Below are positions 7,397 to 29,953 of a DNA stretch of 34,039 nucleotides, piece after piece. The notes beneath the pieces are model-generated. The model saw nothing but the letters and a program-made list of their open reading frames with translations, was not told the origin of the DNA and ran no database searches. Numbering within the stretch: position 1 is the first letter of the stretch; the number at the start of each line of letters is the position of its first letter. Position numbers and translations under genes: made by a program. This DNA is from a virus. Its lineage: Duplodnaviria; Heunggongvirae; Uroviricota; Caudoviricetes. The stretch is taken from IMG/VR virus record IMGVR_UViG_2617270939_000002; one strand, given 5' to 3'.

Positions 7397-7612
7397 TTAT
7401 TTTCTGAATTCTAACGAAGACTGACCAGAACGAATGTACAGTGCAATATTATCAAATGTAATCATTGTTGATTTGCAAAAAATACATTTTGCTCCGAAAG
7501 GATTTTTTTCAGTAACATCAAAGTTTGACGTTCGGTACTGAGATCCGTGGCAACACGGACATCTGAAGTGAATATTATTAGTAATAACAGTTACCTTATA
7601 CAGCCACGACAT
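7397..7612 (-). CDS. Hypothetical zinc-ribbon-like small protein (71 aa; CPCC...CIFC)
   Basis: ATG at 7612; two Cys pairs about 22 residues apart; overlaps 3' end of csp gene by 17 nt; weak RBS. Confidence 0.3.
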
Positions 7613-7808
7613 TAACTGCCGTGGGGCCTTTAGGTCCCTGTTCAACACTAAATTCAACTTCCTGATTCTCATTCAACGTCTTGAAATCATTACTCTGGAT
7701 AGCAGAGAAGTGAACAAACACATCTTTACTACCATCTTTTGGAGTGATAAAACCAAAACCTTTTTCAGGATTAAACCATTTAACTAAACCAGTCATTTTA
7801 TTAGACAT
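7596..7808 (-). CDS. Cold-shock protein, CspA family (CspB-like)
   Basis: [53 protein letters not shown]... ; long AT-rich upstream leader typical of csp genes. Confidence 0.9.
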
Positions 7809-8240
7809 AAACATTACCTTTATTGAGTAAGCCCTTGGGCAGAATGGTCCGAAAAAAAATTATCAGAGAGAAAAGCTAACAAGGAAATCTCAACAGGAAC
7901 AAGGAATAAAATTATTACAGCGACTGCTTCAGATAAATTCGTTACAAACCAGACATTCATTAACGCATGATTAACCAGACATAGCAAGGTTTAGTTTTGT
8001 AAGTAAATCTCAGTGGGTTTTGATCTTAAAAATTAATTTAAATAGCTTAAATCGAAAATTATGTCATGCTGCGTAAGACCTTTATCTATCACCCTAAGTT
8101 GTCAGGGATTTTGACTCAAGGAAGAGTCGTATTTCCTTCATAGTAAAAATTCACAAATTTATCCACGAAAACCGTCAACATCTTAATTTATAGAGCTATT
8201 ATTTTTCCTCTACGGTTCATTGTTAGTATTTTTACGGACT

Positions 8241-13442: not shown

Positions 13443-13829
13443 ATGTCGTGTAGGCGTAATATCCCACGATGGAAAGCATACAGGACATTTTTATGCAAAG
13501 TCAACACTAACGTGCAAAAAAGTGTCGCTACCGTAACCCGTACCAGACCCGCCACACATTCGCCACCAGACACATTAGCCAGGGCGTAAACCTTTTCTGG
13601 CTTGCCGGGCAGATGGGGCATAAAGGGCCGGAAATGCTGTTCCGCAATTACGGTAAATACCTGGCTGAATACGACGGGAAAACCGCCATTTCAGCAGCTC
13701 TGTAGCGTCGTGAGTATTTCAAAATGTTGGACGGAATCAGGACGTTAGAGGGACCACGATATGCACGTAAAATGCACTTGAGGCCTTTCAAAAAAGACAA
13801 AACATTAATATTCAATAGGTTAAGCATTA

Positions 13830-13864
13830 TTCGGACACGGGTTCAACTCCCGCCAGCTCCACCA
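13830..13864 (+). other. 3'-terminal fragment of tmRNA (ssrA)-like sequence ending in CCA; att core, not an intact RNA gene
   Basis: TTCGGACACGGGTTCAACTCCCGCCAGCTCCACCA matches the E. coli ssrA 3' end as I recall it (one difference); upstream sequence does not match the ssrA body. Confidence 0.7.
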
Positions 13865-13932: not shown

Positions 13933-14030
13933 ACGTCTATTGTAGTCTAGTGAGAATTGCTGAGAACTACGAGTTATGGCACCCTGAATGGGACCCACGA
14001 AGATGGGTCCTAAAATCGAGGGTCCCAAAC

Positions 14031-15260
14031 ATGGCCAAAATCGCTAAGAAGCTCACTGACACTGAAATCAAAAGCACCAAACCTGCCGAAAAAGAGGTTA
14101 ACCTTTTTGACGGCGATGGTTTGCTGTTGCGAATCGCTCCCCTGGCGAAGGGAGGGAAGAAAAATTGGTATTTCAGATATGCAGTGCCTGTGACCAAAAA
14201 GCGAACTAAGGTGAGCTTAGGAACCTATCCTCACCTTACACTTGCGAAGGCACGAGCTTTACGTGATGAATACTTGTCGTTGCTTACAAATGGTATAGAC
14301 CCCCAAGTTCATAACAACCAAAAAGCCAATGCACTGAAAGATGCCACGGAACATACATTTCAAGCAGTAGCCAAGAAGTGGCTTGATGAGAAAGTCAAAA
14401 CGTCAGGCATCTCCCAAGATCATGCTAACGACATCTGGCGAAGCCTAGAGAGAAATATCTTTTCCACATTGGGTGATACCCCAATTAAGGAGATTCGCCC
14501 TAAAATGCTTAAACAGCATTTAGAACCCATAGAAAAACGAGGTGTCCTTGAAACACTTCGCCGCATCATATCCCGCCTGAATGAAATTTTCCGCTATGCA
14601 GCAACAGAAGAACTCATAGAATTCAACCCGGCAGACAACCTGGGGCAACGGTTCAGCAAGCCAAAAAAACAGAATATGCCAGCATTACCCCCTTCCGAAC
14701 TCCCTCGCTTCTTGGTTGCTCTAAACAATGCTTCTATCCGTTTGGAAACAAGGCTACTGATTGAGTGGCAACTTCTCACATGGGTTCGCCCAGGTGAAGC
14801 TGTTCGCACAAGATGGTCAGATATTGATATTGAAACTGGCATGTGGAACATCCCGGCGGAGTTTATGAAAATGAAGAAGCCTCACAAAGTTCCACTGAGC
14901 AAAGAAGCTTTGCGAGTTTTGGATTTAATGAAAGTCATCAGCGGGCATAGAGAGTGGGTGTTCCCCAGTATCAAAGCTCCACTCAATCACATGCATGAAC
15001 AAACAGCTAATGCGGCCATAATCCGTATGGGTTTCGGAGGTGAGCTTGTAGCTCACGGTATGCGATCCATTGCTAGAACGGCTGCTGAGGAGTCTGGCAA
15101 GTTTAGGACTGATGTCTTAGAAGCCGCCCTTGCCCACTCGAAGAAAGATGAAATAATTGCAGCCTACAATCGTGCAGAGTATCTCACTGAACGGGTGGTT
15201 CTCATGCAATGGTGGAGTGACTATGTTTCGTCTCAAAAATGCAAAGTTATTGCCGCATAA
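14031..15260 (+). CDS. Tyrosine integrase, P4 family (IntA-like), 409 aa
   Basis: MAKIAKKLTDTEIKSTKPAEKEVNLFDGDGLLL...WYFRY... N-terminus and C-terminal HGMRS...LAHS...Y catalytic region; adjacent to ssrA-type att. Confidence 0.9.
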   Translation: MAKIAKKLTDTEIKSTKPAEKEVNLFDGDGLLLRIAPLAKGGKKNWYFRYAVPVTKKRTKVSLGTYPHLTLAKARALRDEYLSLLTNGIDPQVHNNQKANALKDATEHTFQAVAKKWLDEKVKTSGISQDHANDIWRSLERNIFSTLGDTPIKEIRPKMLKQHLEPIEKRGVLETLRRIISRLNEIFRYAATEELIEFNPADNLGQRFSKPKKQNMPALPPSELPRFLVALNNASIRLETRLLIEWQLLTWVRPGEAVRTRWSDIDIETGMWNIPAEFMKMKKPHKVPLSKEALRVLDLMKVISGHREWVFPSIKAPLNHMHEQTANAAIIRMGFGGELVAHGMRSIARTAAEESGKFRTDVLEAALAHSKKDEIIAAYNRAEYLTERVVLMQWWSDYVSSQKCKVIAA

Positions 15261-15542: not shown

Positions 15543-17099
15543 ATGGCTAGCGAAAATGACAAAAATCATAGAGTTAGGGTCGCGCAGTACTTGAGGATGT
15601 CTACCGACCATCAGCAATATTCTTTACATAATCAGTCCGAATATATCAAAGATTATGCTGAAAAGAACAATATGGAAATCGCTTATACCTACGATGATGC
15701 AGGTAAGAGCGGAGTCAGTATCGTAGGCAGGCATTCTTTGCAGCAGTTACTTAGCGATGTAGAACAAAAGAAAATAGATATACAGGCTGTATTATTTTAT
15801 GATGTGAGCCGTTTTGGTCGTTTTCAAAATAGTGATGAAGCGGCATATTATTCCTTTCTATTTGAGAGAAATGGTGTAGATCTTATATATTGTTCCGAAC
15901 CTATACCCACTAAAGATTTCCCTTTAGAGTCCTCTGTTATACTGAATATAAAAAGATCTAGTGCTGCATATCACAGCAGGAATTTATCTGAAAAGGTATT
16001 TATAGGGCAAGTAAATTTAATAAAGCTTGGTTATCATCAAGGCGGTATGGCTGGTTATGGGCTGAGACGTCTTTTAGTAGACGAAAATGGCATAGCTAAA
16101 GAAATATTGAGTTTCCGCAAAAGAAAGAGTATTCAAACAGATAGGGTAATATTAATTCCGGGACCAAAAAATGAAATAAAAATTGTAAATAGAATATATG
16201 ATCTCTTTATAGATAATAACGTCCCAGAATTCATTATTGCTGAGAGATTAAATGAACAGAACATACCTGCAGAAAATGGAACATTATGGACTCGTGCAAA
16301 AATACATCAAATTTTGACAAATGAAAAATATATTGGAAACAACATATATAACAAAACCTCATCTAAATTAAAAAGTAGGCTTGTAAAAAACCCCAAACAT
16401 GAATGGGTTAGATGTGACAAGGCATATAAACCTATTATTTCAAAGAAAAAATACAATAAAGCTCAAGAAATAATTCAGCTCCGATCCATTCATTTGACTA
16501 ATGAAGATCTATTAGAAAAACTAAAACAAAAATTAGAATCTAATGGAAAACTATCAGGCTTTATCATTGATGAAGATGATACAGGCCCTTCATCTTCTGT
16601 TTATAGAACCCGATTTGGTGGTCTTTTAAGAGCATATACTTTGATTGGTTATAAGCCAGAACATGATTACAGCTATCTCAAAATAAATGAAGCACTAAGA
16701 TCATTTCACTCAGAGATAATTGAGGATTTTAAGGGTGAAATTTTAAAAAGTAACTGTCATATAGACGAGTATAAATATGCCCCAATGCTTTACATCAATG
16801 ATGAGTTTTTAATTTCCGTCCTTGTTACTAAATGCATACATATGAAATCAGGTAAACTTAGATGGAAAGTCCGGTTTGATAACTCACAGAAAGCAGACAT
16901 AACAATTGTTATACGAATGAATTCACAAAATATTTCACCTCTTGATTTTTATATCATACCAAAGATTGAAAACGAATATAATAAAATGTGCATGACGGAA
17001 ACAAACAACATTCGATTAGATCTCTATAGATTTGATAATCTTGATAAACTTCTACAAATTATTACTCGCATGAAAGTGAGGGAACTATATGCTGCCTGA
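15543..17099 (+). CDS. Large serine recombinase (resolvase/invertase catalytic domain plus recombinase and zinc-ribbon domains)
   Basis: VAQYLRMSTDHQ catalytic serine motif near N-terminus; 518 aa; AT-rich. Confidence 0.85.
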   Translation: MASENDKNHRVRVAQYLRMSTDHQQYSLHNQSEYIKDYAEKNNMEIAYTYDDAGKSGVSIVGRHSLQQLLSDVEQKKIDIQAVLFYDVSRFGRFQNSDEAAYYSFLFERNGVDLIYCSEPIPTKDFPLESSVILNIKRSSAAYHSRNLSEKVFIGQVNLIKLGYHQGGMAGYGLRRLLVDENGIAKEILSFRKRKSIQTDRVILIPGPKNEIKIVNRIYDLFIDNNVPEFIIAERLNEQNIPAENGTLWTRAKIHQILTNEKYIGNNIYNKTSSKLKSRLVKNPKHEWVRCDKAYKPIISKKKYNKAQEIIQLRSIHLTNEDLLEKLKQKLESNGKLSGFIIDEDDTGPSSSVYRTRFGGLLRAYTLIGYKPEHDYSYLKINEALRSFHSEIIEDFKGEILKSNCHIDEYKYAPMLYINDEFLISVLVTKCIHMKSGKLRWKVRFDNSQKADITIVIRMNSQNISPLDFYIIPKIENEYNKMCMTETNNIRLDLYRFDNLDKLLQIITRMKVRELYAA

Positions 17100-17985
17100 A
17101 AAAAATGAATTCCCAATAATTCAAATTGAGATTGCAAAAATAAAATTTCTTAACCCACGAACAAGAAATAAGTTAGTGCATGAAGAAATAAAGGAAAGCA
17201 TAAAAAAAAGAGGATTAAGCAAGCCTATAAGCGTAAGAGCTATTGATGAAGGCGATTTCAAATATGCTTTAATTTGTGGTCAAGGGAGAATAGAGGCTCT
17301 CGTTGCATTAGGTGAAACTATTATTCCAGCAATTATAAGAGATGTATCAGAAGAAGATGCTTACGTTATGAGTTTAGTTGAAAACATTGCAAGGAGAAGA
17401 CCACGTTCTAATGAGTTATTACAGGTGATTAAAGACATGAAAATCAGAGGACTTTCAGACTCCGAAATAAGTGAGATTACTGGATATTCATCGAACTGGG
17501 TGAGCAGTATTAATATGCTACTTGATAAGGGAGAGCATAAACTTCTCTCAGCAGTCGAACGGGGTAATTTGCCTCTGTATCTCGCAGTGCAATTTGCAAG
17601 ATGTGAAACTGAGGAAGCACAAGATATTCTTACCGAAGCATATGATAAAAAATTAATAAAAAGTCGGGACATTATAAAGATAAAACACATTCTAAATCAA
17701 AGAACAGTTGGGAATAAAGGTGCAAAAGCAGCCGGATTTTATTATCACAAACCATCAAAAAGGATGACTGCAGAGGAGTTGATTGAGCTTTATGAAAATA
17801 GTATCGCTGAACATAAATCTGTTTATAACAACTCAAAATTCATAAAAACCAACCTACTAATAGTAAATGAGATTTTTAACATCATAATGATGAATAAAAG
17901 CTTTCAACATATACTTGAACAAGAGAATCTTTCAGAACTACCATCTCAGATATTAACCCCAATAAACAAAGAGGTATTAAAATGA
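17089..17985 (+). CDS. ParB-like N-terminal domain protein with HTH (paralog 1)
   Basis: ISVRAIDEGDFKYALICGQGRIEALVALGETIIPAIIRDVSEEDAYVMSLVENIARR matches ParB/Spo0J N-domain pattern; 11-nt overlap with recombinase. Confidence 0.7.
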   Translation: MLPEKNEFPIIQIEIAKIKFLNPRTRNKLVHEEIKESIKKRGLSKPISVRAIDEGDFKYALICGQGRIEALVALGETIIPAIIRDVSEEDAYVMSLVENIARRRPRSNELLQVIKDMKIRGLSDSEISEITGYSSNWVSSINMLLDKGEHKLLSAVERGNLPLYLAVQFARCETEEAQDILTEAYDKKLIKSRDIIKIKHILNQRTVGNKGAKAAGFYYHKPSKRMTAEELIELYENSIAEHKSVYNNSKFIKTNLLIVNEIFNIIMMNKSFQHILEQENLSELPSQILTPINKEVLK

Positions 17986-18878
17986 TTCAGATACGTTTTG
18001 GCGATAATTTTATTTACCTGGAAACTAATAAGTTAATTCCATCTAAGGAATTATTAGAAAACGTAAAGCGAAGCCATAAATATCATCAAATAGTTACCTC
18101 TATCGAAAGCTTAGGTATTATTGAACCAATAATAGTATTCTATGACAAAGATAAAGATGTCACTAAGATACTTGATGGCCATTTAAGGGTTGAGGCTTTA
18201 AAAGACTTAGGTATAGAAAAAGCTCCATGTATACTTTCGAGCATAGATGATGCTTTCACTCCTAACAAACAAGTGAATCATATAAATGTAGTTGAAGAAC
18301 ATAGAATGATAATTAAGTCTCTGGCAAAAGTATCAATTGAAAAACTTAGTGCTGCTTTGGGCATATCTGTTGATGCCATAAAAGATAAAGCGAATGTGAT
18401 GAACGGCATAGATCCAAGTGTAATTGCGAAACTTTCTGATAAACCTATACCTAAGGCTACATTTGACGTTTTGAGGAAAATGAAGCCAATTCGCCAAATT
18501 GAAGCAGTCGGTACAATGATTAATTTTGATAATTATAGTAAAAAATTTGCAATGAGCATCTTGGATGCAACACCGGCATCGATGATAGTAAATAAAGGGA
18601 AAAACACTCCCTATAAAAAGGATATAAAAAAAACCATACTTCGTCTGGAACAAGAAATGGCAACAACTTCGGAAGAAACGAAAAAGCTTCAAACCGAGTA
18701 TGGTTCAGATATGTTGAAATTCGTTATAATCCAGTCATATATTAATAAATTACTTGGCAATTCTAAAGTTCTTCATTGGTTCTTAGAAAACGAGGTTGAT
18801 TATCTTAATGAGTTAAAAAGAATTTCTAGAATAAATTCTTTGGATGATAAGACTCTTACTGAAAACAGCAAGTCATAG
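17982..18878 (+). CDS. ParB-like N-terminal domain protein with HTH (paralog 2)
   Basis: IIEPIIVFYDKDKDVTKILDGHLRVEALKDLGIEKAPCIL...; ATGA overlap with paralog 1. Confidence 0.65.
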   Translation: MIQIRFGDNFIYLETNKLIPSKELLENVKRSHKYHQIVTSIESLGIIEPIIVFYDKDKDVTKILDGHLRVEALKDLGIEKAPCILSSIDDAFTPNKQVNHINVVEEHRMIIKSLAKVSIEKLSAALGISVDAIKDKANVMNGIDPSVIAKLSDKPIPKATFDVLRKMKPIRQIEAVGTMINFDNYSKKFAMSILDATPASMIVNKGKNTPYKKDIKKTILRLEQEMATTSEETKKLQTEYGSDMLKFVIIQSYINKLLGNSKVLHWFLENEVDYLNELKRISRINSLDDKTLTENSKS

Positions 18879-19532
18879 TCATGTTTTATATAGCCTAAAT
18901 AAACCAAGAAGTATACTTACACAACGACCTTCACGCCGAAGAAGCTGTCAGATACGCCAGCAACCAAAGCATTACGTTTAAGTGTCAGTCATTGATACGA
19001 AGGGATAACTGCGTATCAGCAGCCGGACATTGAGTCGAATAAAGGCTGGTAGAGAGGGACAGTTCTGTGTCACCGGGAGATTCGTCAGAAACATCAGCGG
19101 CAGAACAGATGAACCAGCAATTGGTAGTGCACAGAAAACTCTCCAGTATTTAATTATTCAACTTAACACTAAAAAAAATCACATATTTAATATCATAATT
19201 TTTCTTTGGTCTACGTATGCGAGAGTTATTGTGGCTTTAACCGGGTATTAGGAGTCGTTTCAGATAAAAGATGTTCTTCGATTCGACTGGACTTGGTAAT
19301 AGCAATAAGTAATCGTTAATATTGAAGGACGAAAGGCTACTTCAAAACAAAGTAACCTTTCCAATATTCCCATCTATGGGACAAGTGGTACATTAACTGC
19401 ACATAGTGCAGGATACATATGACATAAAACTTTTTATTTATGGCATACATTATAAATAACTTGTATTTTATGAATGTCAATAGGTTCTTGTTTAATACTT
19501 TTAAAATAATTAATTGATTGTTTTTATTATAG

Positions 19533-19552
19533 CTTCGCTTGTACAAGCGAAG
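19533..19552. repeat. Perfect 9-bp inverted repeat around a central TA dinucleotide (CTTCGCTTG-TA-CAAGCGAAG)
   Basis: Read directly; the 2-nt spacer argues for a DNA-level protein-binding or crossover site rather than an RNA hairpin. Confidence 0.6.
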
Positions 19553-19587
19553 ATCCTATTGTTCTTGAATGAATAATGCCAATTATA

Positions 19588-19631
19588 AGAGAAGCAAGGG
19601 CTAACTCTGCGAAGCCGCTGCGCTTGCTTCT
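19588..19631. other. GC-rich stem-loop (10-bp perfect stem gagaagcaag/cttgcttctc, 24-nt structured loop) inside an AT-rich ORF-free gap
   Basis: Read directly; followed on plus strand by a C/T-rich tract. Confidence 0.5.
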
Positions 19632-20612
19632 CCGGTTTCCCCTTGCTTTTCTTCCCTTCGGTTAGAAAAGAAAAACCTGGTCTTTCTCTTTCAATGTCTG
19701 CACATTTACTACAACAGATTAGACAATCGCAACTATTTATTTTATATGGAAAACTAGTGCTTAAATTGCAGCTCTCATTTTTATCAATCATTTTGCATAA
19801 GATAAATTTAAGTTTATATACCAAGGCATCCCGTTAGTTTTTACACGTAGGTAAACTAATAGTCAAAATCGAACTTTGAATTGTAGATTCTTTTAATTTA
19901 ACTCTATCCATCCGGTTAGAGGTAAAGGGAGGTTCATTTCAAGATATCATTGAACACAGTTCCAGATTAATATTATCAAAGAATTGAAAAAGATAATTAT
20001 TATTGCAATCCGTTAATGAGTCCACTTCAATTTTCCGTTCTTCTTACAGCGTTCTGAACAGTTAAACATATGATAGCTATTTAAAACCTTCGGTAATCTT
20101 ATCCAATACGGACTTGTCTGGTTTGATAATTACCAGAATCACACTATGCTCTTCAGTCTAATTTGTCAGTGATAAGGAGATCCGACCTATCGAACTTGCG
20201 TCATTTCCTAAATTTAGTGATTATAAATGTGGTTATCTATGGTCTTGTTGTGAAGATGTAGGCTGGAATTATCATGACGAACTGCAGCCTACATAAGCCG
20301 ACAGTACGGCTTTGATCGAATCATTAACTCTTTTATCATCTCAGGAACTGTGCAGACATTCCAGTTCAATTTTATAACGTTCAGTAAAAATTTAAAAAGG
20401 TGACAGCCCATGATCTCAATTGCAGACAATCAACCGTCTTTGATGATCATGGGTATATAAGTTTAACAAGATGTCTTCATCTCATGTGATTAAAATATAT
20501 AACAACACTAATTTAAAAATCGATTCTTAACTCTTCCAAAATATCACCCTTTATATTTCATTAAATTAATATCATAACTACACATACTAATTAGATAGTG
20601 TGTTAATTAAAT

Positions 20613-22739
20613 TCATCTAACTGACTCAATGATCTTTTGTTCTATAACTCGCCCACCTTGCTTTCCAGACAAAGGACCAATTAGTACTTTAAAGTCGGCA
20701 TAGTCATCTGCCTCAGGCCTATGCTCTATAATAACAATTGCATTGAATAATTTAGATTTTTGATATATAAAATTCAGCACCTTCGAAGCCGTCTCAGAAT
20801 CAAGTCCAGCGACAGGTTCATCAATAAACAATATTTTGTTTGTTTTTCTGGACTTAGATAGTATTTCACATAATTTTATTCTACGCATTTCACCACCTGA
20901 CAGGGACTGCGTTTTTCTATTAAGTTTCAAATGTGATATTCCAAGATAATGGATAGTTTCAAGAATAGTATTAATCTTAGTGTTATTAAAAAAAGAGCTT
21001 AACTCTTTCAACTCAGTATCATATACATCTATTATATTCATACCATTAATCTGAGACTTTACTTCATCTATATTGTGGTCAAACAGTTTACCCTCACATT
21101 TATGACATGATATGTAGATATCCTTTTCAAAACCCCTTTCATATTTTATCACGCCCTTACCTTCACAAACTTTACATCCACCAAGTTTGTTTGGAAGGAA
21201 ATACTCTATATCTAATTTTGTTATATCGGAGAAAAATTCTGCAATTAATTTATTCAAATCCGTGATAGTTGCGACAGTAGAACGTCCTGTATATGATGAC
21301 AATTTTTGGCTTATATAAATCGAATCGGTAAGACTACAAATAGCTTTAGCTAAAGATGATTTCCCCGATCCGGAGATTCCAGAAAAAACAGTAACACACT
21401 CTTTAGGGATACGTATATTTTGATTAATGATGTTATTTTTATTAAGCCCTTCAAAATAATAGTAATCAGATATATTATTTTTGGGATTGAGGTTCCTTTG
21501 CGGCTGAATTTTTTCTTTTTCACAAATTTCCCCACCAGAAGAACCAGCGTATTTACCAACATGGATTTGCTGATCAGCAAGATCTATGAAATACTGCGAG
21601 TGCTCTACTAAAATAACTGTGTTTTTTTCTGATAATTTTTTTAGCTTTTGAAAGATAACTTCAAAATCGACAGGGTTAATTTGGGATGATATTTCATCGA
21701 TAACAATCAGAATACCTGTTGTATTAGATGTTAAAAGCCTGCTGAAAATAAGTTTTTGTATTTCCCCCCCAGAAAGACTGGGAATTGAACGAGACAAATT
21801 TAAATATCCCAATCCCATATTATTTATTGAGGACAACACTCTAATTAATACTGAGTCACCTATAGTTTTTTTCAGGGTATTACATAATTCAGATATAGGA
21901 GATAGTAAAAATTCATCAAATGTAAATCCTAAAACATCAAGTTGGGCTGTTTCTTGGTTAATTCTGCTTCCATTACAAAATGAGCAATTTTCTTCCTTTT
22001 TATACTTTGAATTGTTTTGGCTCCGTCCTATATTCGAATTAGCAAAAGACATTACGCCTTTATAAAAAGCTCTTCTTTGCTTCGTTTTTCCTTTGTGTTT
22101 AAATCTAAAAGATAATTTCTCAGCGCTTTCTCCATATAGTATTAGGTTTTTCTTTTCAAGTGATAGTGAATCAAAAGTATCATCTACTTTTATATTATTT
22201 TTATCACAATAGACCATAAGTAATTGGTGATAATAATCAGATAACTCACCAGTCCGCCAACATAAAAATGGTTTTTGATCTAGTCTACATTTTTCATTAA
22301 TTAATTCAGATTCATCCACACTAACTATCTCGCCAAGGCCTAAGCAGTGTGGACATTCATTTCTATAATTGTTTATTTTTAATTTATCATAATTAGGTAC
22401 TGCTACGTTTCTTTTGATTTTTAAAGATGACAAAGCTTGAGCTATATTCAGATATGAATATATAGTTGAACGAGGGTTGTTATTTGTGTTTCTTTGTGGT
22501 ATCGCAACAGCGGGAATTAACCCACTGAAATTTGCAACTTTATAATCACTTTCATTCAAATAACCGTTTTCTACAGCATCAAACTCATCTTTGCATAATT
22601 GATAAATTGATGAAAATGCTAAAGAACTTTTTCCTGCGCCCGAACGGCCATAAATAGCGGTTATTGTATTAAATGGTATAGTAACATCTAAATTTTTTAA
22701 ATTATGGGTGGCTATTCCCTCAAAAATGATCTTATTCAT
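20613..22739 (-). CDS. UvrA-like double-ABC ATPase with zinc-finger insertions (708 aa)
   Basis: Two Walker A motifs (GRSGAGKSS, GISGSGKSS), two ABC signatures (LSGGEIQKL, LSGGEMRRI), several CxxC pairs; AGAGGA RBS; ATG overlaps upstream stop as ATGAATAA. Confidence 0.85.
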   Translation of the reverse strand: MNKIIFEGIATHNLKNLDVTIPFNTITAIYGRSGAGKSSLAFSSIYQLCKDEFDAVENGYLNESDYKVANFSGLIPAVAIPQRNTNNNPRSTIYSYLNIAQALSSLKIKRNVAVPNYDKLKINNYRNECPHCLGLGEIVSVDESELINEKCRLDQKPFLCWRTGELSDYYHQLLMVYCDKNNIKVDDTFDSLSLEKKNLILYGESAEKLSFRFKHKGKTKQRRAFYKGVMSFANSNIGRSQNNSKYKKEENCSFCNGSRINQETAQLDVLGFTFDEFLLSPISELCNTLKKTIGDSVLIRVLSSINNMGLGYLNLSRSIPSLSGGEIQKLIFSRLLTSNTTGILIVIDEISSQINPVDFEVIFQKLKKLSEKNTVILVEHSQYFIDLADQQIHVGKYAGSSGGEICEKEKIQPQRNLNPKNNISDYYYFEGLNKNNIINQNIRIPKECVTVFSGISGSGKSSLAKAICSLTDSIYISQKLSSYTGRSTVATITDLNKLIAEFFSDITKLDIEYFLPNKLGGCKVCEGKGVIKYERGFEKDIYISCHKCEGKLFDHNIDEVKSQINGMNIIDVYDTELKELSSFFNNTKINTILETIHYLGISHLKLNRKTQSLSGGEMRRIKLCEILSKSRKTNKILFIDEPVAGLDSETASKVLNFIYQKSKLFNAIVIIEHRPEADDYADFKVLIGPLSGKQGGRVIEQKIIESVR

Positions 22740-23814
22740 ACTTTCCTCTACACCAATCACATTCAGGATCACGTGGAACATCTTGGACGTTAAAAGATAA
22801 ACTTCTAAGACTAAATTCGACTCTTTTATTTTCTTGTTGCAAGTGATCTACTTTCCCGGCAAGTAATTTTATAGCGTCCAAGCTTGCAAGGCTTGCAGCC
22901 AGACCTGATAGTGGTGAAAATGAACCTAATTTTCGTTTTACCCGGTGCAATTTCTTCACATTAACAAGGTCTTTGCTATTTATTTTTCCTAAAAATAGGT
23001 TAAAACAATTAAAGCATGCTGACTTAAATGGAATAATTGTCTGACCGATAAGGGTTTGATGAAGATTATATCCCCCGCCAACTATATGTGGGATATTATG
23101 AATCATACTAAAGAGGGCGATTATTTTACTGGTGTAATCCACATTAGGTTCATCAGCGCAGTTTATTATCAAATCTATATCAGAGGGTAGAATATTTCTT
23201 TTAAAAAAATCATCATCGATAATGTCATTGATAATGTCAATCTTAATATCTGGAGATATCTTTTTCAAAGAGTTGAGTAACGCTATATTTTTATCAGAGT
23301 TAATTTCATCCTCGAAATAAAACTGACGATGTAAATTACTTATATCTACATTATCGTGATCTACAAATATTATCGAACCAACATTGCAATGAGCAAGATA
23401 CGTTGCCACATTACTACCGACTGCTCCAATACCTACAATCATTACTTTTGATTTTTTAAGATTAATTATACATTCTAAAACCTCACTGGTGGTATGACAG
23501 TAGTCTTCAAATGTATTGATCATTCTATATTGTTCAGTGACAAGCTCTGCAGGGTATTGGCAATCTTGATCGATAATTATATTGTTTTCATTCAAAAACA
23601 AAGCTAATTTTTCAAGTTGTTGAATATCGATTCCTGAATAATTTGCTACAATTTCTTGAAGAGAAGTTTGCCCATCAAACATCTTTAAGAGTTCAACTAT
23701 ATTTGGAAAGTTGATTTTTATTTTTATACTTTCTCTAATATTGGATTTAAAAAACTCTACAGTATCATCATTTACGACGATACCAATACTTTGTCGCAGT
23801 CTAAAATTATTCAT
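22732..23814 (-). CDS. E1-like adenylyltransferase (ThiF/MoeB/MccB family) with PqqD-like N-terminal peptide-binding domain, paralog B (alternative GTG start at 23832)
   Basis: KVMIVGIGAVGSNVATYLAHCNVGSIIFVDHDNVDISNLHRQ nucleotide-binding motif; N-terminal LLKMFDGQTSLQEIV; C-terminal CFNC...CDWC. Confidence 0.8.
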   Translation of the reverse strand: MNNFRLRQSIGIVVNDDTVEFFKSNIRESIKIKINFPNIVELLKMFDGQTSLQEIVANYSGIDIQQLEKLALFLNENNIIIDQDCQYPAELVTEQYRMINTFEDYCHTTSEVLECIINLKKSKVMIVGIGAVGSNVATYLAHCNVGSIIFVDHDNVDISNLHRQFYFEDEINSDKNIALLNSLKKISPDIKIDIINDIIDDDFFKRNILPSDIDLIINCADEPNVDYTSKIIALFSMIHNIPHIVGGGYNLHQTLIGQTIIPFKSACFNCFNLFLGKINSKDLVNVKKLHRVKRKLGSFSPLSGLAASLASLDAIKLLAGKVDHLQQENKRVEFSLRSLSFNVQDVPRDPECDWCRGKYE

Positions 23815-24931
23815 TACAGATTTTGCATCCACTTTGTTTTACCAATTCAAAATTAGTCATTTTGCCTTCGTTTGGAAGGTATTCATACCGACTATTTACA
23901 TATGAAAATGCTGAATCATCCAACAGGAAGTGAATTAATTTCATGCAACTTAGATTAGCTGAAAAACCATTCATCATTGCTAATCCACCAGGCCCTCCTG
24001 GAATATAATTATCATAGACAGATTTTGAAAGGTCCAGTTGAGGATTATTGACTATACTATATACAGGCTTCCATCCTTTTAATGCCTTTGAAAACGTATT
24101 TTGGGCACAATCTATACAGGGTGTATGTGGAGGGAATATTAATTCTCCTGAACTCATTAAGTGGGCGTCAAATCCACCTGATACATACAGCGGAATAGCT
24201 CTTGCTTGTGCATATCTACCAAGTTTTAAAGAAGTATGACCTATATAAGGCTCATCACAAGTATTAATAATCAGATCTGTATCATCAGAAATGATAGAGG
24301 ATAGATTAGTAGTAGGTATAAGTTTTTCAAAATGTTTTGTTATTATTACTCGACTATCGATCCAACTCAAAAATTCTGACAGGACATCTACCTTTGGTTT
24401 TCCGATTTTCTTATAGTTATAATAACAATGCCTTGCTGCATTTGACTTTGAAAGGGACTTATAATCAACCAAAACTATATTTTTAACACCTGCGCGGACA
24501 AGTATTTCTATAATTTTGGCTCCTACAGCTCCACACCCAAATAAAACAACCTTTTTGCTCTCCAAGATATGTTGAGTTTCTACACCAGGTCGTTCAAGGA
24601 CAAAATCGTCCCAAAATGTAATTTGTCGTGAAAAACGAGGTTCAATATCGCAAATGTTATTTACATCATAAATAAAATGTTGATTTAGTAAAAAAGCAAT
24701 TAGTTTATCGACATCTTTTGAGCGTAGGGACCCCATCTCAGTAACTATATCATTTATAGTTTTTATACCATCAAGGCTGGCAATAAATCGAGCGACATTT
24801 TTATTAGTTTTTATTTCTAATCTATCACGCGTTGTCATCACATGAAATGTGAGTTTGACATTATCAGTATTATCTTCATTCGATATAAAAATATCCACAG
24901 TTTCTTTTATTTTATATTTTTTGGAGTCCAT
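23807..24931 (-). CDS. E1-like adenylyltransferase (ThiF/MoeB/MccB family) with PqqD-like N-terminal peptide-binding domain, paralog A
   Basis: KKVVLFGCGAVGAKIIEILVRAGVKNIVLVDYK motif; N-terminal FIASLDGIKTINDIVTEMG; C-terminal CIDC...CKIC. Confidence 0.8.
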   Translation of the reverse strand: MDSKKYKIKETVDIFISNEDNTDNVKLTFHVMTTRDRLEIKTNKNVARFIASLDGIKTINDIVTEMGSLRSKDVDKLIAFLLNQHFIYDVNNICDIEPRFSRQITFWDDFVLERPGVETQHILESKKVVLFGCGAVGAKIIEILVRAGVKNIVLVDYKSLSKSNAARHCYYNYKKIGKPKVDVLSEFLSWIDSRVIITKHFEKLIPTTNLSSIISDDTDLIINTCDEPYIGHTSLKLGRYAQARAIPLYVSGGFDAHLMSSGELIFPPHTPCIDCAQNTFSKALKGWKPVYSIVNNPQLDLSKSVYDNYIPGGPGGLAMMNGFSANLSCMKLIHFLLDDSAFSYVNSRYEYLPNEGKMTNFELVKQSGCKICNE

Positions 24932-24979: not shown

Positions 24980-25180
24980 TTAATATTGGAGAACGCCGGC
25001 GTTAACCTCCAAGTATTTTTCCCAAGCATCTAAATTCGACGCTGAGTTTTGCTCGTCGTTACCAGCTCGCGTGCATACACGAGTACAACAGTCACTACGT
25101 TCTCCAGAGCAACCACCCGTATAGTTGGCGGTAGCATTGGTATTGCTGATGACTTCAAATGTTAAATCTAAACACTGCAT
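24980..25180 (-). CDS. Small Cys-rich protein (66 aa), candidate precursor/substrate peptide of the E1-like operon
   Basis: ATG at 25180 with AAGGA RBS; MQCLDLTFEVISNTNATANYTGGCSGERSDCCTRVCTRAGNDEQ...; GC content higher than the enzyme genes, so assignment is tentative. Confidence 0.4.
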   Translation of the reverse strand: MQCLDLTFEVISNTNATANYTGGCSGERSDCCTRVCTRAGNDEQNSASNLDAWEKYLEVNAGVLQY

Positions 25181-25610
25181 ATCAGGTCCTTTGCAAGTCA
25201 ATTGATTAGCAAGCTAAGCATTCTCTTTGATATAGCTTAATTTTAAGAAAAAACTTACCCTTCATGATGATTAAATCACAAAACTTCTGTTCATGGGAAT
25301 GGTAATTTTTTGTGCGGATTCAATGCCAAATCTCATCAACAGATCGTCCTAAATAGATGCTCGGAATAGTAAAACAGTTTGAGGGAACTCAGCACGCACT
25401 GAGCGAAGCAGATCGTAGCACTTCTTCTCCGTAGCGAACGATGCCCGATACATAAAACGCTTCATAAAACCCATGACAAGACCCACACCCGCAGATTGAT
25501 CACCATGCTGATGTAGCATCGTGGTGACCGTGGCAGAGACACTGCCAAAACGCTCAGCTATGCCCGTTCATCCACTGAGCGTTGGATAAACTGGTTTACA
25601 GTTTCGAGGA

Positions 25611-26156
25611 TTGAAGACCAGAAATCGTTGCCTAAGCGATATTCTTAAAGCGTCGGCGGAACGTTCAGACAAACCCACTGGAGCTGTGCTACAGCATCTT
25701 ATTGGAGCCAAACTCCAATTGCGCTTTCCCAATGTTAAAATCGGCAGTGACAGAGCCAATGCAGCTGACTTACACACTGACCGTGAGGGTGATTTTCAGG
25801 TGGGTACTACTGCATTCCACGTGACCACCGCACCTATGGAGAAATTGATTTCGCGCTGTGTCGAAAACAAACGTGCAGGCTACAGGCCGGTCATCCTAAC
25901 TCTTGAAAGCAAAGTCATTGCAGCACGCCAGATGGCTGATAACGTTGGTATGTCTGAACAGATAGCCGTCCAGGCAGCCGAAACTTTCATCGGTAACAAT
26001 ATTGAAGAGATTGCTATCTATGACGGCGATAAAATCCGTGAGGGTCTCGCAAGACTGATACGTACGTACAACGTCCGTATCAATACTATCGAGATAGATA
26101 AATCCCTTATGATTGATGAGCCTCGTTGGATCGTTAACTTACTGACCGACTCCTGA
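25611..26156 (+). CDS. Hypothetical protein, possibly 5'-truncated gene remnant (TTG start in ORF track), in a segment of E. coli-like GC content
   Basis: 181-aa ORF without a convincing start or RBS; composition differs from flanking AT-rich DNA. Confidence 0.4.
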   Translation: MKTRNRCLSDILKASAERSDKPTGAVLQHLIGAKLQLRFPNVKIGSDRANAADLHTDREGDFQVGTTAFHVTTAPMEKLISRCVENKRAGYRPVILTLESKVIAARQMADNVGMSEQIAVQAAETFIGNNIEEIAIYDGDKIREGLARLIRTYNVRINTIEIDKSLMIDEPRWIVNLLTDS

Positions 26157-28110: not shown

Positions 28111-28174
28111 TAATTTAGCCCTTTATTCAGCCTGAGCAGGTTTCATTTCATGATAACTGACCTGATAAATCCTG

Positions 28175-28207
28175 ATAAGTAAGCCATTCAGCCAATGGCT
28201 TACTTAT
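28175..28207 (+). terminator. 14-bp perfect inverted repeat followed by T-run; terminator after ANK gene and/or oriT-like inverted repeat upstream of mobC
   Basis: ataagtaagccatt-cagcc-aatggcttacttat then ttttatttt. Confidence 0.5.
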
Positions 28208-28307
28208 TTTATTTTCTCTGATTATATGCATTATATTTCACATGACGTATTGACTTATTTACATCATCCGTTATCTGTAGTAATAAACAAACAATACAAG
28301 GATAACT

Positions 28308-28697
28308 ATGAATAATGACATAACAAGACTATCAAGGCGTGGAAAATTCCATACTGACAAACTTCCGCCTGATGAAAGACGAAGCCACTGCGTCAGTGTC
28401 AGATTAAATGAAGAAGAATTAACTATTCTCGACAGTAAAAGAGGCCAGTATAAAAAAGGGGAATGGTTGAGAATGGCTTCCCTGAACAAACTCCCACCGG
28501 TTCTGCCCGAAATAAATCGCGAAGCATGGATTAAACTCGGCAGCCTTTCCCAGGATTTAAATTACCTACTGAATCATCTTGACAAGAAAAGTCCTGACAG
28601 CGAACTAACCCGTACAGAACTCTTTGCCCTGCGCAGACAAATCAAAACGCTTCGGGATCACCTTATTCCCTCAACATTTCTGGAGCAAGACCGATGA
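28308..28697 (+). CDS. MobC-like relaxosome accessory protein (ribbon-helix-helix)
   Basis: RRSHCVSVRLNEEELTILDSKRGQYKKGEWLR pattern; ATGA coupling to relaxase. Confidence 0.65.
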   Translation: MNNDITRLSRRGKFHTDKLPPDERRSHCVSVRLNEEELTILDSKRGQYKKGEWLRMASLNKLPPVLPEINREAWIKLGSLSQDLNYLLNHLDKKSPDSELTRTELFALRRQIKTLRDHLIPSTFLEQDR

Positions 28698-29953
28698 AAG
28701 GCATGCAGAAAATAAAAAGGGGTAAACAGTTTGCAGGAGTGGTGCTTTACAGCCTCAAATCCGGTCCACACCACAACGTTATGCCTTATGTCATCGGTGG
28801 TAATATGATCGGAAGTTCGGTGGCTGAGCTTATCAGTGAGTTTGAAATTTCTAAACAATTGCGTCCCGATGTCGCCAAACCCGTCTGGCATAATTCACTT
28901 CGCCTGCCAAAGGGAGAAACACTGTCAGCCAGACAGTGGGCGGCATTCGCCGACGATTATATGACCCGGATGGGGTTCACTGAAACGCACCTTCGCTGTT
29001 ATATCCTTCACGATGATACCGACGGGCAGCATATCCATATCATTGCAAGTCGCATTAACATGGCCGGTGGAAAGCTGTACCTGGGGAAAAATGAAAATCT
29101 CATCAGCACCCGCATTATCAGCGAACTGGAGCGAATACACGGACTCACTGAAACAACACCTGCAACCAGCAGTCGCCCTCAGGCTAAAAGAAAACCCTCA
29201 CGCAATGAGCTGATGATGGCAGAACGAACAGCAGTTCCCTGCCCTAAGTCTCAGTTGCAGACCCTGATTGATAATGTCTTAACGCATCGTCCCGATTTAC
29301 TGACTTTTATCGACATGCTGGAACAGAAAGGTGTGACCTGTAAACCCAATATCGCGTCGACCGGAAAAATGAATGGATTTTCATTTCAGTACCAGGGTAT
29401 TGCCTTTAAAGCGTCTCAGCTTGGAAAAAAGTATGGCTGGTCTTCTCTGCAAACGCAGATTGATTTTACACCAGAGCACCTGGCCTTACTGAAAAAAGAG
29501 CAACAACAGACTGTACCAGTGCCAGTGCCAGTGCCAGTGCCAGTGCCAGTGCCAGTGCCAGTGCCAGTGCCAGTGCCAGTGCCAGTGCCAGTGCCATCAT
29601 GCGAGCCTGAAGAACAGGTTGCAAACCGGGAAACGATTCTGGAGAAAATCCTTCAGCTTGAAGAAAAAATTCGTCTGGAAAGACAACAGGAAACAGTGGG
29701 TGTCATTCAACTCAGGAGCAAACTGCACAATACAGCTCGTCAGATACCCCGCCAGCGTCGTCTGCATTCGTGGTTTGTATTGCTCGGCCATATTGTGGCA
29801 CTTCTCAGGCGCAGGGGCATGTCTCTGTTACATGCCACTGCACATCCTTTCCACCAAATCCTGCACCTGCATCTTCTGACACCCTGTCATTCCATGACAA
29901 CAAATCCCATTAAAGAACAATTAGTTAAAAATAACCCCCATCCTGCACCATAA
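28694..29953 (+). CDS. Mobilisation relaxase (MobA/VirD2-like) containing a (VP)14 linker
   Basis: HLRCYILHDDTDGQHIHIIASRINMAGGKLY histidine-triad region; follows MobC-like gene. Confidence 0.75.
   Translation: MKGMQKIKRGKQFAGVVLYSLKSGPHHNVMPYVIGGNMIGSSVAELISEFEISKQLRPDVAKPVWHNSLRLPKGETLSARQWAAFADDYMTRMGFTETHLRCYILHDDTDGQHIHIIASRINMAGGKLYLGKNENLISTRIISELERIHGLTETTPATSSRPQAKRKPSRNELMMAERTAVPCPKSQLQTLIDNVLTHRPDLLTFIDMLEQKGVTCKPNIASTGKMNGFSFQYQGIAFKASQLGKKYGWSSLQTQIDFTPEHLALLKKEQQQTVPVPVPVPVPVPVPVPVPVPVPVPVPVPSCEPEEQVANRETILEKILQLEEKIRLERQQETVGVIQLRSKLHNTARQIPRQRRLHSWFVLLGHIVALLRRRGMSLLHATAHPFHQILHLHLLTPCHSMTTNPIKEQLVKNNPHPAP
29514..29597 (+). repeat. Hexanucleotide microsatellite (GTACCA + 13 x GTGCCA) encoding (Val-Pro)14 inside relaxase
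   Basis: Read directly from sequence. Confidence 0.95.

Follow-up and report, generated by a model that had tools for sequence, protein, structure and literature searches.

A structured 83-nt element as candidate origin of transfer in a family of enterobacterial mobilizable islands

Which function might reside in 1.7 kb of DNA without genes that lies between two convergent operons of a mobile island? The question is raised by positions 18879-20612 of a 34,039-nt stretch of DNA filed as a caudoviral record in IMG/VR (IMGVR_UViG_2617270939_000002), which we call here the window. This gap contains a structured element of 83 nt that is conserved across Enterobacterales and that we consider, with a probability of roughly 0.6, to be the origin of transfer (oriT) of the island or the core of it. 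On the best reading of the sequence comparisons, it would represent an undescribed oriT family with sites for an accessory protein, that is, a new member of an ordinary kind. We judged its novelty against the PLSDB plasmids, Rfam and the literature; the 52 new families of 10.64898/2026.01.13.699239 lie outside this comparison.

A structured element linked to mobilization genes

The element was first noticed as a 90-nt sub-segment that matched alone in two E. coli islands (L004 and L005) and in one of Salmonella houtenae (L006), the latter reached via a Salmonella chromosomal contig filed in a phage collection. When folded, the L006 copy forms a near-perfect 23-bp hairpin that has a bulge of 2 nt and precedes another, small hairpin. 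Scanning one genome of each species for the pattern yielded 68 loci, of which 64 were in Enterobacterales and spanned at least 20 genera (including Escherichia, Salmonella, Citrobacter, Enterobacter, Klebsiella, Serratia and Yersinia as well as Pectobacterium, Brenneria, Erwinia, Pantoea, Rahnella, Photorhabdus and Xenorhabdus), and the other four were chance matches in other phyla. In the window, the covariance model of the element detected exactly one copy, with 91 bits.

The helices of the consensus fold (P1, P2a, P2b, P3 and a mini-stem in the P3 loop; Table 1) were well supported by comparative data. In an alignment of 45 distinct element copies (A1), 96.9% of the cells paired, against 30-63% when the partners were slid by 1-3 columns. 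Eight pairs exhibited compensatory double changes, a number reached by none of 500 shuffles, and these changes fell in P2a, P2b, P3 and the P3-loop mini-stem. Outside the element the flanks were unrelated between subfamilies, on one side from its first base and on the other after the last hairpin. No Rfam family matched the element and, in the literature, we did not find the motif described in a relevant context. A local peculiarity was observed in Erwinia sp. OLFS4 (L010, 685-714), where the P1 arm is expanded to tandem repeats (AAGCAAGCAATC, two to three times) directly 5' of the element, which suggests slippage or duplication at its 5' edge.

We searched all element loci with the window proteins (tblastn) and detected an accessory and/or a relaxase gene in ~45 of them, located downstream of the element and on the same strand in all but one. 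The exception, Enterobacter adelaidei (L060), had only a partial 65-aa MobC-like match ~950 nt upstream of the element. The start of the accessory gene lay 200-300 nt after that of the element in ~30 loci; a position just upstream of the accessory gene is the classical one for an oriT. Some of these loci have a separate promoter for the accessory gene between the two, as in one of the E. coli islands (L005; TTGACA-17-TATAAA). In the other loci, cargo or ankyrin genes (1-12 kb, in some cases on the opposite strand) separate the element from the mobilization genes, and the element is retained; its distance to them is ~8.7 kb in the window and 11.7 kb in E. coli E24377A. This retention despite the intervening cargo fits a cis-acting DNA site working at a distance. 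The smallest island, of 10 kb at mutS, encodes a tyrosine integrase, four small hypothetical proteins, a helix-turn-helix (HTH) protein, the relaxase, the accessory protein and one cargo protein, and at its far end it keeps both the element and the conserved non-coding module that precedes the element in one island subfamily. Both therefore belong to the island backbone. This island sits at the 5' end of mutS in E. coli GW-AmxH19 (L003/L075; NZ_CP048647.1, 1150270-1160500), with a duplicate of the initial ~55 nt of mutS at its far end and a 485-aa tyrosine recombinase adjoining the intact mutS. The arrangement is the same in Escherichia ruysiae (L034).

Regarding the mobilization proteins of the window, the relaxase matched, in addition to the Pfam family listed in Table 1, the NCBIfam models TraI_MobP_relax, Bacteroid_MobB and MbpB, all below their curated cut-offs, and a plasmid relative is typed as MOBP. 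Sub-threshold NikA-like matches were found in 7 of 16 homologues of the accessory protein. Searches of PDB with both proteins were uninformative.

We also considered an alternative oriT directly upstream of the accessory gene and rejected it: in 44 distinct metagenomic relatives, only a terminator hairpin and a conserved promoter occur there. The terminator (28170-28215 in the window, with equivalents in L081-L159) has wholly changed its sequence between clades and kept its pairing (ATAAGTAAGCCATT / GGGTATACTATT / GAGCAGATTA), and the promoter that follows it is strongly conserved (TTGACTTATT-N-GTTATCTGTAGTAAT). Among plasmids, one from Pseudomonas with a 50% identical relaxase carries GGGCTAAC-hairpin-GTTCC ~100 nt upstream of its accessory gene, with a marginal 15-bit match to the covariance model. 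Two other candidates were discarded, namely OX345050 (relaxase 64% identical), a 3.6-kb 'plasmid' that is only an island fragment without the element, and pWES-1, which gave no match to the covariance model and only a loose AGCAAGG..TAAC resemblance. Finally, a metagenome scan with the relaxase yielded 80 loci, with 6-kb flanks that are too short for its clade; two of them, of the mutS-island type, held the element.

A candidate origin of transfer

The element combines a fixed-orientation link to relaxase and accessory genes with an inverted repeat of hairpin potential beside conserved sequence. In the MOBP oriTs of RP4 (TraI/TraJ) and R64 (NikB/NikA), an inverted repeat likewise lies beside a conserved single-strand recognition sequence, the site is placed upstream of accessory and relaxase genes transcribed away from it, accessory-protein repeats are found nearby, and there is one copy per element. 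Unlike them, the element described here lacks the nick motif YATCCTG|Y and any similarity to PLSDB plasmids, has three helices including a second, A/T-rich hairpin (P3), and in many islands is followed by kilobases of cargo before the mobilization genes. The MOBQ-type oriTs (RSF1010/R1162, pSK41 NES) consist of a hairpin, ~8 nt and then the nick in ...GTGCGCCCT..., and their layout of a hairpin followed by a conserved run is similar to that of the element. GCCCTT occurs twice in it, as GTTAGCCCTTGC immediately 3' of the P2 hairpin (- strand) and as YGCCCTTCGG in the P3 loop (+ strand). We take this core to be a loose resemblance to the MOBQ nick cores and a lead only; the spacing differs and the relaxase scores best with MOBP-type models.

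In the mechanism that we propose, the NikA-like ribbon-helix-helix protein would bind (R)CAAnCGAAGC motifs, both in a palindrome upstream of the element (19533-19552) and in the CGAAGC/GCTTC arms of the inner hairpin. The hairpin and the invariant GCAAGGGCTAAC, which reads GTTAGCCCTTGC on the opposite strand, would be recognised by the MOBP-type relaxase, which would nick one strand beside this sequence, with the mating channel coming from a co-resident conjugative plasmid. Cargo of the defence type would have built up between the oriT and the mobilization genes in this E. coli lineage, placing them 8.6 kb apart. Two nick positions can be envisaged. With a - strand nick at the element's 5' edge, immediately 3' of GTTAGCCCTTGCTT, the order would be the canonical one of hairpin, conserved run, nick and variable DNA; the mobilization genes would then be transferred last, and this option would account for the recombination junctions described below. 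Alternatively, the + strand might be nicked ~8 nt after P1, within the conserved P3 loop (YGCCCTTCGG), as would be favoured by the G-T wobbles of that strand.

Several observations weigh against an oriT function. The 12-mer and the 10-mer used in the pattern scan are invariant by construction, so that their conservation is not independent evidence, and symmetric changes in inverted repeats can also stem from binding by a protein dimer where no hairpin forms. The element was not found in the 72,556 plasmids of PLSDB and hence cannot be linked to a validated oriT. For the clade nearest to the window relaxase, the element usually lies more than 6 kb away and the linkage is one of synteny only. 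The MOBP nick motif (ATCCTG/CAGGAT) is absent on both strands from 19591-19673 and from the family consensus, and nicking and transfer are predicted functions. In addition, P1 and the T-rich run look like an intrinsic terminator, and the two lines of evidence on the nicked strand disagree, since the G-T wobbles favour folding of the + strand and the junction data favour a - strand nick. Finally, P2a is weakened in the window copy, and this copy may be active or inactive.

The location of the oriT matters because hundreds of E. coli genomes carry these ssrA islands with changing defence cargo, such as type I restriction-modification, Kiwa, Gabija-like genes or, here, a UvrA-like/E1-like set. 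It would show which islands remain mobilizable and which DNA enters the recipient first, and it would explain why cargo diversity begins at one exact base. The element also provides a compact and easily searched marker of this island family across Enterobacterales. A study of chromosomal oriT candidates and 'iOriT' islands takes as a candidate the nearest intergenic region upstream of a chromosomal relaxase gene; it lists 52 new families and reports a clustering of the defence systems of integrative mobilizable elements near the oriT (10.64898/2026.01.13.699239). Here too, defence cargo lies close to the candidate oriT; in the lineage of the window, however, the region so defined does not hold the element, which would probably be missed by that method.

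Rival functions, junctions and the palindrome

An unlikely alternative to an oriT is that the element acts as a + strand RNA, either a small RNA or a terminator or insulator formed by the P1/P2 hairpin and the T-rich run. G-U pairs occur on the + strand only (in 12 sequences at one P1 pair and in five at each of two others), and the long hairpin is followed by CTTTTC or TTTTTTC. Nevertheless, this T-run pairs with the downstream A-run (P3), which would weaken termination, a simple terminator scan found none, and terminators are not normally conserved in sequence over 20 genera and dozens of gene contexts. The element directly follows the stop codon of a + strand gene in L005, L023 and L033, but the upstream gene of L006 is on the opposite strand. 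Likewise, the lack of an Rfam match, the 5' flank unrelated between subfamilies up to the first base, which leaves no shared promoter, and the invariant CGAAGC common to dispersed DNA repeats all speak against an RNA.

A small RNA had also been suggested in an earlier note, made from the letters of the window alone, which read a 10-bp perfect stem with a 24-nt loop as its possible 3' end. The stem is real (GAGAAGCAAG at 19589-19598 with CTTGCTTCTC at 19623-19632), one base away from the 19588-19631 given there, and shuffles of the gap yield 0.11 stems like it. Its GAG comes from the subfamily-specific 5' flank, and CTTGCTTCTC is present only in the long-loop subfamily. In structure prediction this stem is an alternative pairing, the minimum-energy fold of the window copy, which would compete with the family fold. 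The small-RNA proposal is not supported in this form: the pairing is specific to a subfamily, there is no conserved promoter, because the sequence 5' of the element is wholly replaced right up to its first base, and Rfam gave no match.

The first base of the element is also where islands have been joined. From 19591 rightward, the island of Enterobacter adelaidei (L060) is 97.8% identical to the window for more than 4 kb, and to the left it is unrelated. Junctions of this kind, with (near-)identity rightward and random-level similarity leftward of the element's first base, occur in at least six island pairs (the other sets being L012 vs L045 and L047, L040 vs L009, L072 vs L057 and L065, and L002 vs L054). 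At the opposite edge, the homology of the window to eight other islands always ends at 19672-19677. In the junction pairs, the polymorphisms within the element follow, without exception, the right-hand side, which carries the cargo and mobilization genes, and islands with a common left flank differ inside the element (CTCCGGTTTC in the window vs CTTCGAGTTC in E24377A). This places the point of exchange within the invariant AAGCAAGGGCTAAC or immediately before it.

Such junctions would be expected if initiation or termination took place at a nick site. Relaxases are known to catalyse oriT-specific recombination (TrwC of R388 and MobA of R1162), so that no separate system is needed for the junctions. 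We tentatively propose, as a possible but doubtful scenario, that the nick site of the oriT, on the - strand at the element's 5' edge (~19590/19591, after GTTAGCCCTTGCTT), is the point at which islands re-assort. The relaxase would start at the oriT of one island and end at that of a second one, for example in tandem at the same att site, and would thereby join an integration module to another cargo-plus-mobilization module exactly at the nick. If this were true, conjugative processing would shuffle defence cargo among enterobacterial islands, and relaxase-mediated recombination would be a concrete way, open to testing, in which defence islands exchange modules.

Conjugation-independent exchange at a dedicated site-specific recombination ('docking') site for cargo or modules, comparable to the integron attC/attI sites that fold from single-stranded DNA, seems to us more unlikely still than an RNA. 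In its favour, at least six independent pairs have their junction exactly at the 5' edge, and the 3' edge is where homology ends. The long imperfect hairpin, the 2-nt bulge and the AAC...GTT flanks recall the R-boxes of attC, with which the element shares an inner stem conserved in structure over sequence, bulged bases, AAC...GTT at the base of the inner helix and a location at the boundary of variable cargo. However, there is one copy per island and not one per cassette, with no cassette array, no IntI among the scanned genes and invariant outer arms. The exchanged segments are many kb long with no second site bounding their far side, and the constant partner of the element is a relaxase.

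The palindrome upstream of the element, which the earlier note had placed at 19533-19552, is exactly there (CTTCGCTTGT/ACAAGCGAAG, a perfect 20 bp). It is the only perfect 10+10 palindrome of the window, for which dinucleotide shuffles predict 0.05 per window and 0.003 per gap. A second copy was not found in the window even with three mismatches, and the site is internal to the island. Its arms are invariant in 10 loci that bear the non-coding module, and the centre is TA or TG. Beside the module, four of these loci lack serine recombinase and ParB genes alike, and in the mutS-integrated island of GW-AmxH19, checked in its entirety, the palindrome is kept with a tyrosine integrase as the sole recombinase. 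A second island subfamily, which has neither serine recombinase nor ParB, carries ~580 bp of non-coding DNA between the integrase gene and the element, and in the stretch upstream of the latter we found 2-8 direct copies of the half-site (R)CAAnCGAAGC (CAAGCGAAGC) and occasional inverted ones (GCTTCGCCTG). The direct repeats are spaced ~44 and ~60 bp beside AT-rich DNA, and among the hexamers of that upstream stretch CGAAGC shows the strongest enrichment (16-fold). In an alignment of both subfamilies, the palindrome halves fall on an inverted and a direct copy 27 bp apart. CGAAGC also forms the 5' arm of P2b, the inner hairpin of the element. The motif is thereby found both next to the hairpin and within it, a placement shared with the sites of accessory proteins in known oriTs.

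The occurrence of the palindrome and its half-sites in islands without serine recombinase or ParB leaves them no dedicated role with those proteins and points to a protein of the shared island backbone. As judged from this distribution, the palindrome is a probable binding site for a dimeric backbone-encoded protein, for which the ribbon-helix-helix accessory protein would be the obvious candidate. The weaker option of the earlier note, an operator or protein-binding site, is compatible with the repeated motif; its att core for a serine recombinase is not supported, as the site is internal, single-copy, kept in islands without such an enzyme and present as direct half-site repeats in integrase-only islands, with a symmetric TA centre. 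In large serine recombinases, a symmetric central dinucleotide cannot give polarity to an att site.

With direct motif repeats ~44/~60 bp apart beside AT-rich DNA, module and element might also be seen as the replication origin of the excised island, with CAAnCGAAGC iterons and the hairpin as a rolling-circle double-strand origin, a reading to which we attach little probability. Neither the minimal island of 10 kb nor the surroundings of the element in compact loci contained a recognisable Rep or primase gene, and compact subfamilies have the element without the repeats or the AT-rich leader. Some relaxases of integrative elements also start rolling-circle replication at oriT (ICEBs1), and a replication origin would merge with the oriT if the relaxase were the initiator. 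The palindrome lies downstream of two ParB/RepB-like genes, and ParB and RepB proteins bind palindromes of 16-20 bp; a parS-like centromere for this pair is nonetheless very improbable, given that palindrome and half-site repeats occur in islands without both genes. The least credible function is that of crossover core (att/res) or operator of the adjacent large serine recombinase, largely refuted by distribution: the palindrome lies ~650 bp downstream of the recombinase/ParB operon and its 9-2-9 symmetry is unlikely by chance, but it has one copy in 34 kb even at three mismatches, away from the island boundary, is conserved in islands devoid of any serine recombinase, has a symmetric TA centre and a half-site that becomes a dispersed direct repeat where only a tyrosine integrase lies upstream, and its adjacency to the recombinase is secondary because an IS3 remnant separates them.

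Another motif, TGTCAAT(A), was seen upstream of the element in ~30 of 69 loci, a count inflated by the relatedness of the flanks, at 13 to 116 nt from it (e.g., L006 8001-8008, L029, L030, L031 and window 19473-19480); some copies fit the IHF core TCAAnnnnTT. We rejected GTCAAT as a fixed promoter -35 box or IHF site on account of this variable spacing.

Gap mosaic and island context

The gap is a mosaic within a mobilizable island integrated at ssrA, a patchwork of decayed DNA around the 83-nt element. Comparison with other genomes resolved five pieces, namely an IS3 fragment, the 416-bp non-coding module, the element, a spacer and short linkers (Table 1).

Table 1. Coordinates of the features discussed in the text (window positions).
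Feature	Position	Strand	Basis or sequence
Left attachment repeat of island	13830-13864	+	35-nt copy of ssrA (tmRNA gene) 3' end
P4-type tyrosine integrase of island	13950-15260	+	Pfam Arm-DNA-bind_3, Phage_int_M, Phage_integrase
Large serine recombinase	15543-17099	+	Pfam Resolvase+Recombinase
Two ParB/RepB-like genes	17089-17985, 17982-18878	+	Pfam ParB_N+RepB
IS3-family fragment, 5' part of transposase gene, degenerate	~18928-19147	-	Comparison and NCBI annotation
Conserved non-coding module, 416 bp	19175-19590	+	One island subfamily, upstream of 83-nt element
Palindrome	19533-19552		Two abutting inverted copies of (R)CAAnCGAAGC
Structured element, candidate oriT	19591-19673	+	64 loci, consensus fold, covariance model
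P1	19592-19600 with 19640-19648	+	AAGCAAGGG / CCCTTGCTT
P2a	19603-19607 with 19634-19638	+	AAC.. / ..GTT; weakened in window copy
P2b	19611-19615 with 19626-19630	+	GAAGC / GCTTC; GATGC / GCATC in five sequences
P3	19646-19652 with 19664-19670	+	CTTTTYY / RRAAAAG
P3-loop mini-stem			CC / GG
Cargo-linked spacer, 939 bp	19674-20612		Downstream of convergent UvrA-like/E1-like operon; no ORF, no conserved feature
NikA-like ribbon-helix-helix accessory gene	28308-28697	+	Sub-threshold NikA-like matches
MobA/VirD2-type (MOBP-like) relaxase gene	28694-29953	+	Pfam Relaxase PF03432

The earlier note had presented the gap as AT-rich and free of open reading frames (ORFs). Indeed, no ORF is credible between 18878, where the second ParB-like gene of the + strand stops, and 20613, the stop of the - strand gene for the UvrA-like ATPase; at 104 aa, the longest one is a low-complexity frame started by TTG, and six candidate ORFs of the gap had no Pfam match. 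The G+C content is 34%, yet this is not lower than in the flanking genes (31-36%), and the whole island segment at 15.5-25 kb is AT-rich. Part of the gap is not featureless, as NCBI annotates an IS3-family pseudogene fragment in this sequence where it occurs in other genomes. Rfam searches of the gap, with gathering and permissive thresholds, gave chance-level matches only.

The IS3 piece shows 71% nucleotide identity to ISSen4-type IS3 transposase genes over 134 nt (18928-19061) and no intact ORF. The NCBI pipeline annotates the equivalent of 18952-19063 as a - strand pseudogene ('IS3 family transposase, frameshifted, incomplete'), and our reading of an IS629-like leader (CTGGAGAGT) suggests that the fragment extends to ~19147. 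The 416-bp module holds, together with the palindrome, several invariant small hairpins and an AT-rich stretch. It is 82-83% identical, with frame-breaking indels, in mutS-integrated islands (L003, L034, L155 and L157), and is present in part in Salmonella diarizonae (L011, the last ~290 bp) and in Enterobacter. Its variants were too few and its variation too low for covariation to show structure. The spacer is common only to one of 5,426 E. coli genomes and Enterobacter adelaidei, together with the same rare cargo. It diverges ~3 times faster than the neighbouring coding sequence, carries a 15-bp indel and is probably decaying DNA. The sequence just 5' of the gap and its first 795 bp are, for their part, present in several hundred of the 5,426 complete E. 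coli genomes.

The window itself is an Escherichia-type chromosome in which a decayed lambdoid prophage spans position 1 to ~13.6 kb. Homology with E. coli E24377A begins at 13830, which corresponds to a position inside the annotated ssrA, and a Rfam search did not find an intact tmRNA gene in the window. At 13600-13864, the island stands in tandem behind the prophage at ssrA: the probable end of the prophage integrase gene (~13705, read by eye) is followed by the partial ssrA copy, which has one mismatch. The P4-type integrase gene comes next, then the serine recombinase gene, the two ParB/RepB-like genes, the gap and the cargo. The latter consists of genes for a UvrA-like ABC ATPase and two E1/ThiF-like proteins on the opposite strand and is followed by a truncated restriction enzyme gene, an ankyrin-repeat gene, the ribbon-helix-helix-like gene and the relaxase gene. 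E24377A has the same backbone at ssrA with type I restriction-modification and Kiwa as cargo. Given this common backbone with differing cargo, the island is an integrative mobilizable element with variable defence cargo inserted at ssrA.

The serine recombinase (518 aa) is CcrB-like at low score, and the ParB/RepB-like genes overlap and encode 298 aa each. This trio had no PADLOC match except a weak one to a ParB domain, and we found no account of it in the literature. The IS3 remnant stands between the trio and the rest of the island backbone, and the trio is absent beside the module or element in L003/L075, L041, L044 and L047.

The cargo operon (20613-24931, - strand) encodes the UvrA-like ABC ATPase (722 aa), with mad3 as best PADLOC match, and two E1/ThiF-like proteins (366 and 374 aa) that match the PADLOC E1-E2 models and are similar to the NCBIfam 6A-MBL cap2_3; a 73-aa ORF lies upstream of it (24980-25201). 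It was found in one of the 5,426 complete E. coli genomes, where it is truncated by IS1, and in Enterobacter adelaidei. The operon matched no complete known defence system in PADLOC and NCBIfam and may represent an undescribed one. The truncated restriction enzyme gene (25611-26156, + strand) encodes a type II endonuclease (DUF4928, profile positions 142-306 of 306) and sits in a patch of 49% G+C between the AT-rich cargo and the ankyrin genes, probably as a leftover of earlier cargo. In the decayed lambdoid prophage, we detected a full-length match to the cspA thermoregulator (7537-7953, - strand; Rfam RF01766, 141 bits), indicating the leader of a prophage-borne cold-shock gene.

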